From NCBI GenBank assembly GCA_051294905.1, contig CM119372.1, positions 34,722,001 to 34,786,000 of the forward strand: DNA of 64,000 nucleotides, given 5' to 3'. Position 1 is the stretch's first letter. Each line of letters starts with the position of its first letter. The notes beneath the pieces are model-generated. The model made no database searches. It had not been told where the DNA came from and was given only the letters and a program-made list of their open reading frames with translations. Source of the stretch: Botryllus schlosseri. Taxonomy: Eukaryota. This document shows, one piece after another, positions 7,001 to 22,201 of this stretch. The translations under genes and the position numbers were made by a program.

Positions 7001-7714
7001 TCGCGCTGCTTGCGCGATTCAATATTGCCGAGTATCCGATTATTGGGTACCCTTCCCCCACGAAAATAAGTAGAATTTATAGAAACGGAAACTTCGGCGT
7101 CTGCCATTACTGCGCCACGAAGCACCAAGGCATATTAAGTTATAGGCTATGTAACATGCAACTCCGAGAAGTGTGGCAGAACGATCAGCAGCAAGAAGAG
7201 CTTGGCCTAGACGTAATGGCCTTGTGGTGACCGGAAACTTCGATACAGTATACATATATGTTTAATTGTCCATAGACGGCTAAATGGCTGGCGCCAAATG
7301 TTCCTGTCCAGGCGATCTGAACCCCCCAGGGCAAATGCCATCCCGCAGGGAAAAATTATTTGCCAGTAAAGCAATACCAATTTGAAATCGTTTGCGCCTT
7401 TTAGTTTTGGCGATTTCCATATCTTTTGACATAGCAGATAGGAGGTCACAAAATAGCATAATGTCATGAATTCAATATACCAACGGGTCCGCCCGAGATG
7501 TTTAATTCATATTTAGTGGTCCTACCTTTTCCAACACACCTCACTCAGCTCTACCGGTAAATCTGATTACGTGAGCAAAGAGGGGATAAAAAATTGATAA
7601 CAAAATATATGCACTTCCCAATCATATTGACCGATTCAAACACGAAATATGAAAATTTTTCGCGCTTGGCGCGTTTAGTCGAAGTAAGGCGACGCAAGTA
7701 GTATAGTAGATCGG

Positions 7715-8210
7715 TCGTGACCTGCCATTGGTTTCTTATGGGCCCGCTGGTGAGGTGCCGCGAAACTCGTGTTGGTGATGGCACCCTTTTGACCCCCCCT
7801 TCCGCTGGTGAGGTGCCATGTGTTCTTATGGGATCTCTGGTGATGGTACCCTTTCGGGTATAGGCTTCGTCGGTGATGTGCCGTGAAAACTCGTGTTGGT
7901 GATGGAACCCTTTCAGACCCCCTATCGCTCGTGATGTGCCATTGTTTCTTACGGGATCTCTGGTGGTGTACCATTGGTTCTTATGGGATCTCTGGTGAGG
8001 TGTCATGTGTTCTTATGGGTGCGGTCGTGACTCGCCTTTTCGGATATAGGCCGCGGTCGTGATTCGCCGTGAAAACTCGGAGTCGTGACTCACCTTTTTT
8101 GTTATAGACGGTGGCAGTGATTCGCCTGTCGTGTATTCTTACGGGATCTCTGGTGATTTACCATGCGTTCTTACGGGCGTGGCGGTGATTCGTACTTTCG
8201 AGTATAGACA
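7715..8210 (+). repeat. GC-rich subterminal tandem array (~30-bp GGTGAT-anchored units, ~124-bp higher-order period); mirrored at ~21690-22185
   Basis: Recurrent GGTGATG/GTGATTCGCC, TTCTTATGGG and AAACTCGTG motifs. Confidence 0.85.
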
Positions 8211-8663
8211 TCTCTCGCGCGGTGTTGAATATGTACGAGTCACCAACAATAACCGCACCAACGGAAACGCGGCTTGCAATAGGATTACGCGTGCGACCTA
8301 TATTTCGAATGACCTGCGCGCTGAATTATTTCTCGTCCAGCCGCTACTATCGATTATTACACTAGACCGGTCAGTGTGAAATAGTTTGATCGTAAATTAT
8401 GATATATGATGTCGTAGTTTAGTCGTGTCAAATGACCGATCGTGTTCCTCGCTATTGATTGCTACCTGAATAATACTTTCGGCTTATTCGCTGTTTCGCA
8501 CCTACAGAATAGTCTGCTGTTCACAGTCACAACTTCATCGCGATAGCACAATTTTCACACCTCGATCAGTAGAACAACACCGCACTAACCCAGTTGTCGA
8601 ATCACATAGGTCATACATTTTACGCGAAATGAAATATTGTATTGTGGTATACAAATATGCAAA

Positions 8664-18577: not shown

Positions 18578-18618
<41 letters not shown>

Positions 18619-21600
18619 ACAAATAATTCCAGTACACCTAACTATAGGATACATTTAGTAAACATCGTGCAAATTGTTTCTTTGTGATGGTAACGACTTT
18701 CGGCGGCTTAGTTTCATGTCGGGAATTATTATTTGAGGGTTCAAAAACAATTTCAATCAATACTAGAAATGAACAACAATGCAAAACACGTTTAGCAAAT
18801 AACAGTGTAGCGAGTACTTTTTTGATATTACGAGTGTTGGATACTAGACACTTCTAGTTGAATTGGATGCATCTAACAAACATATCACAATTTACTTTTA
18901 CAATAATCAAAGTCTTAGAGTGTATAACCTCGCGATATTTTACATTTAGCACGCACAATGGGGAGTTACTGAAATGATTAAGAATTGATCGCTAGCTTCG
19001 AACGGTACTCGATACTCAAAGTGATATTTTCACACTCTGTAAAGTGCATATGTTTCAATTCTCTGTCGCAAATTCCGACAGTAACGACATCGATGTTAAA
19101 TCCTCACCCGTGGTTATTGTAAGTGAATCCTAAACATCGCAACAGTCGGTATGGAAATCGAACGCGTGCGTACTTTTAGATAGGTGACACTAACAAGTTT
19201 ATTACACCCGTGAAATACTCTGAAACGTCGATTCGTGATTGTGTTAGCTATATTCATCTTCCATATCTGTGGACACAAAGATATCTTGACTTTGGTTACA
19301 ACTCACTCGAAACGAATTGTCGCGGGTAATCTAGAAAAGCACAAGTCGAAGACGAATGATTTGATTTCAATAAACTAAAAAAAAAATTCCTTTTGTTTTG
19401 ATGTTGGATTTAATACAATTTGTATGACTATACCGAATTCGAATCCGAAAGTGCAATGTTACTTTAGTAGAATAATTGGATGACTCGCATTTTGATATTG
19501 ATAGATGTGTAGAGTAATATGACTAGTTTATAAAATCTCGGTAATGTTTTTTCGTCATGTCTGTGATCAACAAATATGTGATCAAGTCTTACCATTCGAT
19601 ATTAACTTTCGCAGTCGGTGTAATTTGTTGAAGTAACAATACCGACGAGTTCAATAATATTCCCCATCGATGCATTCGAATAATCCGTCAGCTGCAAGCG
19701 GATTTAAAACTTGATGGTGTTTCGCGGTTAACTCAAGTCAGTGGTCGTGTTTGTGTTGATTTCAGGAATGATCATGACGAGTTGCCTGGGTAGATTAGTT
19801 AATGTGGTTGTAACTACGACCGTACAGAGTTGCTGACATCCCAATATCTTTTACGCTGTAATATACGGATTTAATTGTGATAAATTAATTCTCAGTTATT
19901 GTTCAGACATTCAAATCTCGTATACTCAAAATATAATATGTCCAAGTCAAATGGTATATGCGCCGATTAGTAAATACTTTGTCTTCAGAATAGTACCAAC
20001 CTTTACAATTGAATAAAAAGATAGAGCATACGAATACAACCAGGATGAATTAATTCAAATTTGTGAGTTGTAATGATATAATCAAGTAAGTGAAACTAGA
20101 TTTTTAACAATTGTTAATGTTGTGAATAATTCTTTTGAGTATGGTAAGATGTTAAAATATCTCTTTGATAAACGGAAAGCAGGATTGTGAATAGAGTTGT
20201 AATGTTACATTACTTGTTTCAAAGTATAATCTTGAAATGTGGCTGGATCAAAGTTGGTAGTCATGTTTGTCAATCCTATTTCAATTCACACAATGTCAAA
20301 GTCCAAATATTTCATTCTGGATTATTTGGATTTACCTTTAGTACATCCCGCGAATGGATTTAAAGTTGGCGAATTACCAAAATGATTGAATATTATCGGG
20401 TCAGAGATAGTTGGTATTGATTCTATAAGTGTTAAAACAGCGGCGTGGAATGTGTGAATGATCCGATGAGGGTGAATGTTGGCGTCAGTAATATTCAGGT
20501 TACGTTCGATTCAACAGATCGCGTTAATAGGATTTGAGTTGGGTCGAATCAATACATTCAAATACGATTCAACTTGATTTGTGTAGTGAGTTACACTGAT
20601 GACTCCCACTTTATCAAACGATGTGACATCGAACAGCGTCAACACTATGCAAGTCGGAGCAACTTCAAATTTCCACGTCGGTGTCAAATTCGCCTCATCA
20701 CCAAAAAGAGGCGGCGTTAGCCAATATCTCAAAGGTATATTCATCGACGACAATAACGAAGAGATATCTTTCACGTGTTTCAATCGTGATTTGTTCGGGA
20801 ACATTGAGAAAGCATTCACCAAACGAAAAAAACTCATGGTCAAATCCGGTTGGGTTCAAATTGATAAATTTACTGGAAAACCCGCTGTATTACTTGGTCG
20901 GGCTTCGTCAGTAACTCTACATGGAAAATCGAGACATACGACTGAAGAATACCCATTATTGACCTGTGAATCGGTATACGGAAATAAAGATGAATACGTC
21001 TCGATCGCCGCTACTTGTGTTTCTCGAGAGGAGAAGATGGTCAATTCTGGCGCCGGAAAGGAGTTGAAATTATACAGTTTTACATTGAAGGATGATACTG
21101 GCGAGGTGGTTTTGGATCAATGGAACAAAGCCTCGCTCGTACCCGGGAAGAAATATCAACTCACTCGTGTTAGAAACTGTGTCGGTAGCTTGAAAATCGA
21201 TTCGTTAACTAGACTTGTTGAATTGAAAGAATAGTTTGCATATTTGTATACCACAATACAATATTTCATTTCGCGTAAAATGTATGACCTATGTGATTCG
21301 ACAACTGGGTTAGTGCGGTGTTGTTCTACTGATCGAGGTGTGAAAATTGTGCTATCGCGATGAAGTTGTGACTGTGAACAGCAGACTATTCTGTAGGTGC
21401 GAAACAGCGAATAAGCCGAAAGTATTATTCAGGTAGCAATCAATAGCGAGGAACACGATCGGTCATTTGACACGACTAAACTACGACATCATATATCATA
21501 ATTTACGATCAAACTATTTCACACTGACCGGTCTAGTGTAATAATCGATAGTAGCGGCTGGACGAGAAATAATTCAGCGCGCAGGTCATTCGAAATATAG

Positions 21601-22201
21601 GTCGCACGCGTAATCCTATTGCAAGCCGCGTTTCCGTTGGTGCGGTTATTGTTGGTGACTCGTACATATTCAACACCGCGCGAGAGATGTCTATACTCGA
21701 AAGTACGAATCACCGCCACGCCCGTAAGAACGCATGGTAAATCACCAGAGATCCCGTAAGAATACACGACAGGCGAATCACTGCCACCGTCTATAACAAA
21801 AAAGGTGAGTCACGACTCCGAGTTTTCACGGCGAATCACGACCGCGGCCTATATCCGAAAAGGCGAGTCACGACCGCACCCATAAGAACACATGACACCT
21901 CACCAGAGATCCCATAAGAACCAATGGTACACCACCAGAGATCCCGTAAGAAACAATGGCACATCACGAGCGATAGGGGGTCTGAAAGGGTTCCATCACC
22001 AACACGAGTTTTCACGGCACATCACCGACGAAGCCTATACCCGAAAGGGTACCATCACCAGAGATCCCATAAGAACACATGGCACCTCACCAGCGGAAGG
22101 GGGGGTCAAAAGGGTGCCATCACCAACACGAGTTTCGCGGCACCTCACCAGCGGGCCCATAAGAAACCAATGGCAGGTCACGACCGATCTACTATACTAC
22201 T
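15402..22201 (-). repeat. Right arm of the 6,800-bp inverted repeat
   Basis: Reverse complement of 7697-14496, including identical (AC)18 and T10 runs. Confidence 0.97.
20599..21234 (+). CDS. Second, identical copy of the 211-aa OB-fold protein ORF
   Basis: Same translation as 8664-9299; lies in the right arm. Confidence 0.75.
   Translation: MTPTLSNDVTSNSVNTMQVGATSNFHVGVKFASSPKRGGVSQYLKGIFIDDNNEEISFTCFNRDLFGNIEKAFTKRKKLMVKSGWVQIDKFTGKPAVLLGRASSVTLHGKSRHTTEEYPLLTCESVYGNKDEYVSIAATCVSREEKMVNSGAGKELKLYSFTLKDDTGEVVLDQWNKASLVPGKKYQLTRVRNCVGSLKIDSLTRLVELKE

Follow-up and report, generated by a model that had tools for sequence, protein, structure and literature searches.

The window analysed here is a whole 64,000-nt stretch of Botryllus schlosseri DNA (assembly GCA_051294905.1, contig CM119372.1, forward strand, 34,722,001 to 34,786,000), and searches were made in the assembly of about 495 Mb in 219 contigs. 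Between positions 7697 and 22201 it holds an element of which 94% is inverted repeat: two arms of 6,800 nt face each other across a short spacer, and each arm carries an open reading frame (ORF) near its outer end. The element has the ends of a Maverick (Polinton) and a 6-bp target-site duplication (TSD), and its layout is repeated at dozens of loci in the same genome. Its features are listed below by window position. The word helper denotes autonomous Maverick/Polinton copies in the same genome, represented by the copy C15 with its terminal inverted repeats (TIRs).

7691..7696, no strand: left copy of the TSD, GACGCA, which is single in a paralogous empty site
7697..14496, no strand: left palindrome arm, 6,800 nt, 100% complementary to 15402-22201
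7697..8533, no strand: terminal region, homologous to the 853-bp TIR of the helper and opening with the (AGT)2 motif
8664..9299, minus strand: 211-aa ORF, ATG at 9299, stop at 8664-8666, reading outward to the terminus
9302..9303, no strand: recombination boundary; the helper match ends at 9301 and ORF-less members resume at 9303
9302..14496, no strand: inner arm, non-coding, without helper match in blastn and tblastn comparison
14497..15401, no strand: unique spacer, 905 nt, GC content 0.44, with the same junction in other copies
15402..22201, no strand: right palindrome arm, 6,800 nt, complementary to the left arm
20599..21234, plus strand: the 211-aa ORF a second time, identical to the left copy (0 differences) and reading outward
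22202..22207, no strand: right copy of the TSD, GACGCA, in the flank of the right terminus
36230..36912, minus strand: uninterrupted paralogue of the host repeat, an empty site by direct reading, with GACGCA once

The element starts with AGTAGTATAGTAG and ends with CTACTATACTACT, the reverse complement of its start, giving the terminal pattern AGTAGT...ACTACT. Subterminal tandem repeats of 32 and about 123 nt lie at about 7749-8019. The inner arm contains (AC)18 at 11283-11318 and arrays of 41/42-nt tandem repeats at 13042-13169 and 13185-13760, and it has no noteworthy ORF between 9302 and 14496. Sequence comparison of the spacer (14497..15401) found neither internal symmetry nor a match to the arm or the helper. 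The only frames of at least 200 aa in the 64-kb window are the two ORF copies and one 201-aa frame at 31186-31791 on the plus strand.

Every part of the anatomy given in the initial annotation of this locus holds, from the 6,800-nt arms and the 905-nt spacer to the AGTAGT...ACTACT ends and the 6-bp TSD GACGCA. The absence of recognisable core genes, claimed there as well, is borne out: tblastn with the ORFs of at least 90 aa from the autonomous copy returned TIR frames and one accessory ORF only, and a Pfam search of the element gave nothing above threshold. The picture of an element without genes had to be given up, since each arm holds an intact 211-aa ORF under purifying selection.

The inner end of the arm is the near-palindrome GACTCTGAGTC; both arms end inward (14486-14496 and 15402-15412) in the 11-nt near-palindrome GACTC-T-GAGTC. 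This short sequence could be the seed of a snap-back event. An equally good reading takes it as a direct repeat, with one mismatch, on either side of the spacer, as though the spacer had been put into the centre of a perfect palindrome.

The insertion interrupts a very high-copy host repeat that covers 6433-7696 and continues from 22202 to about 22440; copies of this repeat are about 85-92% identical, and the flank searches returned 6,910 first-look candidates for the left flank and 3,901 for the right. At six uninterrupted paralogues of the repeat, coordinate arithmetic gives an overlap of exactly 6 bp between the match to the left flank and the match to the right flank. One empty site could be read directly inside the window: on the minus strand, 36230-36912 reads ...GGC GACGCA CTAAAC.... 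Because GACGCA stands there once, the 6-bp duplication was made on insertion. The paralogue to which this site belongs (36230-37728) is 94-96% identical to the target repeat and lies inverted, 14 kb downstream of the element. A perfect 6-bp TSD together with AGTAGT..ACTACT ends was found in 10 of 10 copies, namely nine fetched copies and the window element, so that every relative examined has a duplication of the length that the initial annotation regarded as typical of Polintons. As a separate observation, all ten TSD centres are pyrimidine-purine steps (CG six times, TG three times, CA once), a pattern NN-YR-NN that amounts to a palindromic target preference (P about 1e-6 against the YR frequency of 0.256 in the window). 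Logan DNA unitigs over the repeat are about 80-240 nt long and are uninformative either way on the structure of the locus and on insertion polymorphism.

The initial annotation called for an autonomous element with PolB, integrase and the same ends, and one was found. The copy C15 is an autonomous Maverick/Polinton of 15.7 kb with TIRs of 853 bp that differ from each other by 0.9%. Its Pfam matches include rve (E 2.2e-16) together with Chromo (2.2e-9) and DNA_pol_B_2 (1.6e-8), a protein-primed type-B polymerase. One P-loop ORF has AAA and Pox_A32 matches, both below the Pfam cut-offs. In the ESM Atlas a 432-aa ORF falls among double-jelly-roll-like capsid clusters at a score of 0.98, and 14-30% of their members carry PF21738; this is a lead only. 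Pfam at E<=1 found no protease or capsid family in the other C15 ORFs. When the C15 PolB was used as a query, 42 of the 51 scored matches (394 candidates) were without stops, and most matches are open frames of 1,200-1,300 aa at 95-97% identity; PolB genes that are mostly free of stops at such identity indicate a helper population that is large and young.

Comparison with this helper shows what the arm is made of. Window positions 7697-9301 are 93.6% identical to the right end of C15 over 1,621 nt (blastn), and only the first 853 nt also match the left end of C15; the extra 770 nt or so hold the ORF. The terminal region alone (7697..8533) is 91.6% identical to the left TIR and 93.6% identical to the right end. 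The ORF occurs once in the helper, adjoining the right TIR, and at both ends of the window element. Helper sequence specific to the right end thus stands at both ends of the window element, a hallmark of copying from one end to the other. The end regions as a whole are 92-96% identical to autonomous copies over the terminal 0.85-1.6 kb, copies that encode integrase and PolB; with the (AGT)2//(ACT)2 motif and the 6-bp TSDs, this supports the Maverick/Polinton derivation proposed in the initial annotation. The need for a helper in trans, proposed there too, is likewise supported, core genes being absent from the window element and present in co-resident copies with the same ends.

The remainder of the arm has a different composition. 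In each arm the helper right end accounts for the outer 1.6 kb, the inner 5.2 kb being non-coding and rich in repeats, and the helper homology stops 2 nt upstream of the ATG of the ORF. Some members of the family lack the ORF, and in six of eight non-autonomous copies the homology of ORF-less members to the window resumes at 9303. In place of the ORF these copies carry an internally repetitive segment of about 880 nt; an ORF remnant was not found in them by tblastn (best E 7.6). The recombination boundary placed in this way at 9302/9303 is a mark of modules exchanged between helper and derivative. A 217-aa frame of the helper type occurs in four ORF pairs. In the two palindromic copies of this type that were fetched, helper homology reaches 80-100 nt past the ATG, and one of them has two further small patches that match the interior of the helper, one of 169 nt (84%) and the other, inverted, of 133 nt (76%). 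To judge from their sequence, these patches favour descent from a helper genome by deletion and rearrangement.

The element had been described as a copy-back genome in which one end was copied to replace the rest. The part of that proposal concerning the ends stands, the right-end ORF of the helper being present at both; the part concerning the rest does not, as only 1.6 kb of each 6.8-kb arm is helper-derived. A hallmark of copy-back genomes, collinearity of the whole molecule with the helper, fails here, positions 9302-15401 being without helper match.

The palindrome belongs to a family. A search with the terminal 600 nt gave 79 matches among the best 40 of 2,331 candidates, and many loci showed two ends arranged as an inverted pair. 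Arms were compared in eight copies, the C2 copy described below being treated separately: identity is 99.7-99.9% in four whose arms measure 6.2-6.8 kb; the others include C5 (6.4 kb at 99.2%), C1 (5.7 kb at 98.7%) and C8 (4.1 kb at 99.8%). A probe of window positions 13800-15401 matched over its full length at many loci and found at least 38 other loci that share the junction of arm and spacer at 90-98% identity, and in those 38 loci the inverted match ends at probe position 696-699, equivalent to window 14495-14498. Among scored matches, inner-arm sequence occurs genome-wide mostly as inverted pairs. The recurrence of one junction at 38 other loci indicates a single origin of the palindrome and its later amplification in palindromic form, and with this the idea of a one-off copy-back product at this locus falls.

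The ORF gives an independent count. Its matches (150 scored of 348 candidates) form 49 pairs in minus-plus orientation, spaced 9.3-14.8 kb apart in 45 cases, 16.7 kb in one and 24-28 kb in three; the median spacing is 11.3 kb, against 11.9 kb (11,932 nt) in the window. Another 52 ORFs are single, 25 of them within 9 kb of a scored PolB match. Paired ORFs on the one side and PolB-linked single ORFs on the other show that the gene is single in the helper and double in palindromic copies, and there are at least 45 ORF-bearing palindromic copies.

The nearest relative of the window element is a copy on C13, 99% identical in the inner arm. Another long-arm derivative, C8:19355108-19368459, is 13.35 kb long with 4.1-kb arms and a 5.1-kb centre; it shares the outer 700 nt only, and a rearranged piece of the family's inner arm and spacer forms its centre. 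At C13:14624749-14653599 a minus-plus ORF pair 28 kb apart encloses a PolB match, which may be a case of two neighbouring elements or of an autonomous copy whose two ends both carry the ORF. One candidate member, C2:28391982-28413504, of 21.5 kb, was rejected as an assembly artefact, since on either side of a 100-N gap it repeats, at 100% identity, other parts of one and the same palindromic element of about 14 kb. Inside the window a second, more diverged member starts at 54849 with the terminus AGTAGTATAGTAGATCG and runs past the window end at 64000; it matches blocks of the left arm at 71-88% and has a candidate left TSD, CCCGTT. A small inverted-repeat structure just downstream of the palindromic element, at 23068-23687, has 186-nt arms at 93% and 171-nt arms at 82%.

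Within a copy the two arms are nearly identical, and between copies they are not. Arm mismatches number 0 in 6,800 nt in the window element, 3 in C7a, 4 in C7b, 4 in C16 and 15 in C12 (0.24% divergence) per 6.2-6.8 kb, and 6 in the 4.1 kb of C8. C5 has 22, of which 19 fall in the outer third with its subterminal repeats, and C1 has 69, of which 63 fall in the inner third with its tandem arrays, a figure that is probably inflated by them. Gap openings between arms show the same pattern, with 0-2 in C7a, C7b, C16 and C12, 6 in C5 and 7 in C1. For the ORF, arm against arm, nine elements gave 0, 0, 0, 4, 0, 0, 0, 0 and 1 differences in 636 nt; between elements, 5-33 of 636 nt differ (mean 16.4, with synonymous differences per synonymous site, pS, at 0.064). 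Arm blocks shared between copies are 74-94% identical, arm length ranges from 6,170 to 6,827 nt, and the replacement of the ORF by repeats, a change of about 1 kb, is found in both arms of a copy. Changes of several percent and of kilobase scale have thus accumulated between lineages while the arms stayed in step, which excludes independent evolution of the arms. The simplest mechanism would be that one arm is templated from the other during replication.

Palindromic copies also keep a nearly constant length. Thirteen of the 16 end pairs, the window element included, lie 13.1-14.6 kb apart; the other three are the helper at 15.7 kb, the assembly artefact at 21.5 kb and a partial-ended copy at 8.7 kb. 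For ORF-bearing copies, length was estimated as ORF spacing plus 2.6 kb, calibrated on the window element (spacing 11,932 nt, length 14,505 nt). The palindromic copies, at about 13-15 kb, have 85-97% of the length of the 15.7-kb helper, and similar size is found despite differences in structure, in ORF-bearing copies, in ORF-less copies and in C8 with its short arms and long centre. The uniform 13-15 kb suggests a limit that would be set by packaging in the helper capsid.

The 211-aa ORF is open in 150 of 150 scored genomic matches (348 candidates) at 93-100% identity. Selection was measured in 14 fetched elements, nine palindromic, with both arms read, and five autonomous. The ratio of nonsynonymous to synonymous differences per site (pN/pS) is 0.22 in the pooled sample, 0.23 in the palindromic set and 0.17 in the autonomous set, and variable sites fall 19/13/33 on the three codon positions. 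On this comparison of sequences the ORF is under purifying selection, in the non-autonomous lineage as well.

Relatives of the product are few. A homology search returned one match at 97%; among 1.84 billion representatives two relatives were found, the distant one, encoded on a 12.7-kb contig, at 25% identity (E 1.4e-4), and no further relatives of that distant protein were found. The profile search of PDB with the ORF gave nothing significant (matches at E 0.8-1.1), and of its ten sub-threshold matches four are archaeal RPA/RFA. Atlas clusters of OB and RPA type scored 0.92-0.95, a weaker signal, and the taxa of the top Atlas cluster are Chordata. A single-sequence AlphaFold model was discarded as unusable (mean local confidence, pLDDT, 31). 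The model built from an alignment is the one used here. Its top Foldseek matches in PDB are Teb1 AB (1.4e-8) and RPA70 DBD-A/B (1jmc; E 2e-8, TMq 0.53), and RPA trimers, HIN-200 domains and baculovirus LEF-3 are also present among 82 matches at E<=1e-3. VIA-align, which is independent of Foldseek, places the C-terminal domain on an archaeal OB domain with Z 12.0 and a root-mean-square deviation of 2.3 Å over 91 residues, and aligns RPA70 AB (1fgu) with Z 11.4 over 193 residues. The product is therefore predicted to be a tandem OB-fold protein resembling RPA70 DBD-A/B, most likely one that binds single-stranded DNA (an SSB), to judge from the model.

Transcript evidence for the ORF is slight. 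About 6% of an RNA-seq run with the same species label was read, and 191 reads fell on the window; depth peaks over the ORF, at 3-8 in bins 8585-9138, and is mostly 0-1 elsewhere. All six reads at 8725 differ from the window. Seven reads break off at 8124 and eleven at 9101, within the ORF; past 9101 the eleven pass into a single unrelated sequence (agreement 1.0). Splicing, a chimeric transcript or a variant copy may account for these breaks.

Known elements and replicons resemble the window element in part. Intact vertebrate Mavericks are 12.7-24.6 kb long, with TIRs of 46-1,447 bp (mean 402), perfect 6-bp TSDs and end motifs (AG)3/(CT)3 or (AGT)2/(ACT)2 (PMC8097293, Barreat & Katzourakis 2021); for Polintons/Mavericks the preprint of Jeong et al. 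gives a length of 13-25 kb, TIRs between 100 and 1,500 bp and a TSD of 5-8 bp. The window element is like the vertebrate type in its (AGT)2//(ACT)2 motif, perfect 6-bp TSD and length of 14.5 kb, and unlike it in lacking genes for PolB, integrase, ATPase, protease and capsid and in having arms of 6.8 kb where the TIRs described measure 46-1,447 bp or, according to Jeong et al., 100-1,500 bp. By definition Polintons encode PolB and integrase (PMC5499653). The window element has neither PolB nor rve integrase by tblastn with helper ORFs and by Pfam, and so it is a derivative of Polintons/Mavericks and not a member in the strict sense. Butterfly polintons have TIRs of about 2 kb that hold hexon and adenain (Pannagram preprint, 10.1101/2025.02.07.637071). 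They share with the window element a gene within the TIR and hence two copies per insertion; they differ in being autonomous, whereas here the arms are more than three times longer, the duplicated gene is a predicted OB-fold gene and the core genes are missing.

Closer in kind are copy-back genomes. Adenovirus and other protein-primed replicons form copy-back or snap-back defective genomes and repair their inverted terminal repeats through panhandles. Like them, the window element would derive from a linear protein-primed replicon, has one terminus duplicated in inverted form, depends on a helper, is close to genome length and has its repeats kept identical. Unlike them, since they are transient in infected cells, it is integrated in the germline and belongs to a long-lived, diversified family; it is also mostly non-helper sequence and keeps a selected gene. 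To Foldback/Galileo elements of Drosophila, whose arms are also internally repetitive, the resemblance is structural only: Galileo has a transposase of the P superfamily, whereas the window element has Maverick ends and a 6-bp TSD, and the arms of those elements are far shorter and have no link to a protein-primed polymerase. The TSD length of Foldback/Galileo differs from 6 bp.

In adenovirus and in protein-primed phages, DBP and SSBs respectively bind single-stranded DNA during strand-displacement replication. The ORF product has been compared with RPA70 DBD-A/B, Teb1 AB, LEF-3 and the SSBs of protein-primed phages (Bam35 SSB preprint). It shares with these a predicted tandem OB fold of the same size and topology, and an SSB is a standard component of strand-displacement and protein-primed replication; the product differs in sequence, with identity of 12-20% and no Pfam match at threshold. 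Titles and abstracts in the openly searchable literature, which lies outside subscription journals and Repbase, yielded no description of palindromic, copy-back, foldback or defective-interfering Polinton derivatives and none of an OB-fold or SSB gene in Polintons. Non-autonomous Polintons as such may well be catalogued in subscription journals or Repbase. The 2006 paper of Kapitonov and Jurka, cited by Barreat & Katzourakis, reportedly deals with autonomous Mavericks/Polintons.

Several other explanations of the palindrome have to be weighed. A foldback or chimeric long read, or a mis-collapsed repeat, might have produced it during assembly, and such palindromes do confuse assembly, as the false duplication around the 100-N gap in the 21.5-kb C2 "copy" demonstrates; the 100% arm identity could also partly reflect polishing. 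The two flanks differ, however, the TSD agrees with the empty site, and the same layout stands at dozens of loci, each of which has a TSD of its own and a few differences between its arms. Distinct flanks and a recurring layout show that this is not a foldback artefact, and we give that explanation practically no credence. Very improbable, too, is a copy-back (snap-back) genome that was generated individually from a helper just before integration at this locus. Identical arms and right-end-specific helper sequence at both ends are what such an event would leave, but the junction is common to 38 other loci at 90-98% identity, at least 45 ORF-bearing palindromic copies exist, and of the 6.8 kb in an arm the helper matches just 1.6 kb. 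Simple internal deletion in an autonomous Maverick whose TIRs measured about 6.8 kb would have a precedent of sorts in the gene-bearing TIRs of about 2 kb in butterfly polintons. The helper TIR measures 853 bp, however, the ORF is single in 25 of 25 PolB-linked cases, and among scored matches inner-arm sequence is never beside a PolB match; autonomous relatives with arms of this length, which the initial annotation had named as the sign of such a deletion, were thus not what was found, and an origin of this kind has very little chance of being correct.

Two explanations keep somewhat more weight, and both are unlikely. A Foldback-like palindrome unrelated to Mavericks might have gained Maverick termini, and in one subfamily the ORF, by recombination, and might then have parasitised the Maverick machinery with no Maverick copy-back at all. 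The absence of helper homology from inner arm and spacer speaks for such a chimera, as do the sharp recombination boundary at 9302/9303, the internally repetitive arms, which recall Foldback/Galileo TIRs, and the contrast between subfamilies in which ends plus ORF are 94-96% similar and inner arms 65-88%. The small patches of helper interior in one 217-type palindromic copy suggest instead descent by deletion and rearrangement, and a backbone without Maverick ends was not found among scored matches (best 40 candidates per search), so that a chimeric origin appears improbable. Long, close inverted repeats are known substrates of gene conversion, and intrachromosomal conversion after insertion might keep the arms identical, in which case arm identity would say nothing of age or replication. 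Near-identical arms in all seven long-arm copies examined would fit. Arms do diverge in some copies, though (0.24% in C12, and 0.9% between helper TIRs), as a clock running from insertion would have it, and the mirrored 1-kb replacement and the changes in repeat number would need conversion in every lineage. Conversion and templating are not mutually exclusive, and conversion as the full explanation has a rather low probability.

We consider it likely that the window element is a young, non-autonomous, satellite-like derivative of a Maverick/Polinton, dependent on a helper and belonging to a family that became palindromic once and then multiplied, with a putative SSB gene and with arms templated one from the other. 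Several points weigh against this interpretation. The inner arm (9302-14496) and spacer gave no helper match by blastn, by tblastn with helper ORFs of at least 90 aa or by blastn at word size 7, so descent of the whole arm from a helper genome is not established. Copy counts are lower bounds, with 40-150 candidates scored per search. The narrow range of lengths could come from shared ancestry in a small sample, and chromosomal gene conversion could be partly behind the identity of the arms. As to the ORF, its match to PF01336 (E 0.015, 15.6 bits, cut-off 27) is below threshold; the usable model comes from a seven-sequence alignment with a single distant member and has a mean pLDDT of 65, with 76-91 in the C-terminal half and 55-71 in the N-terminal domain; and HIN-200 binders of double-stranded DNA and telomere end-binders score similarly to RPA70, so that the product may instead have a double-stranded DNA-binding or end-binding role. 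Of the RNA reads, 184 of 191 fit in part only, and their variant letters point to other copies. Mobilisation in trans is inferred because ends and TSDs are shared and the copies are young; like the extrachromosomal form and the packaging proposed below, it is read from sequence.

Under the interpretation as a helper-dependent derivative, co-resident autonomous Mavericks would replicate the window element by protein-primed synthesis, and the helper rve integrase would insert it, making the 6-bp duplication. The palindromic layout would have been acquired once, the lineage then multiplying as a palindrome, with each arm made up of 1.6 kb from the helper right end (its TIR and one gene) and, further in, 5.2 kb of non-coding sequence, and with the 0.9-kb spacer joining the arms. 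The tandem OB-fold product would most likely serve as the SSB of strand-displacement replication. A displaced or incomplete strand would fold into a long hairpin, and self-primed extension or repair of the stem would regenerate the second arm; alternatively, the long stem may be corrected as in the panhandles of adenovirus inverted terminal repeats. The resulting molecules, at 13-15 kb, would have to fit the helper capsid.

A more far-reaching proposal can be offered tentatively and is itself somewhat doubtful: that the palindromes are satellite or defective-interfering genomes of an active animal Maverick virus, packaged in helper capsids, with the second arm re-made by self-primed copy-back in each cycle and a double dose of the SSB gene as their own contribution. 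If this were true, packaging would explain why unrelated structural variants have kept 13-15 kb, hairpin copy-back would explain why the 1-kb replacements and the changes in repeat number are always mirrored, and the family would document, in genomic form, a replication and virion cycle of Mavericks that has yet to be observed. Protein-primed replication and virion spread of Mavericks are so far deduced from gene content, direct observation not having been found in the literature searched.

For genome annotation, the family shows that pipelines based on PolB and integrase miss palindromic elements of this kind, which occupy at least about 0.6 Mb here (45 copies of about 14 kb) and which break assemblies, as one false duplication around a scaffold gap attests. 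For the Mavericks themselves, arms that evolve as mirror images restrict the replication intermediate to a hairpin or a panhandle in which one arm templates the other; a capsid limit would yield just such a conserved length close to that of the helper; and the predicted tandem OB-fold SSB adds a candidate replication gene to the Maverick repertoire.

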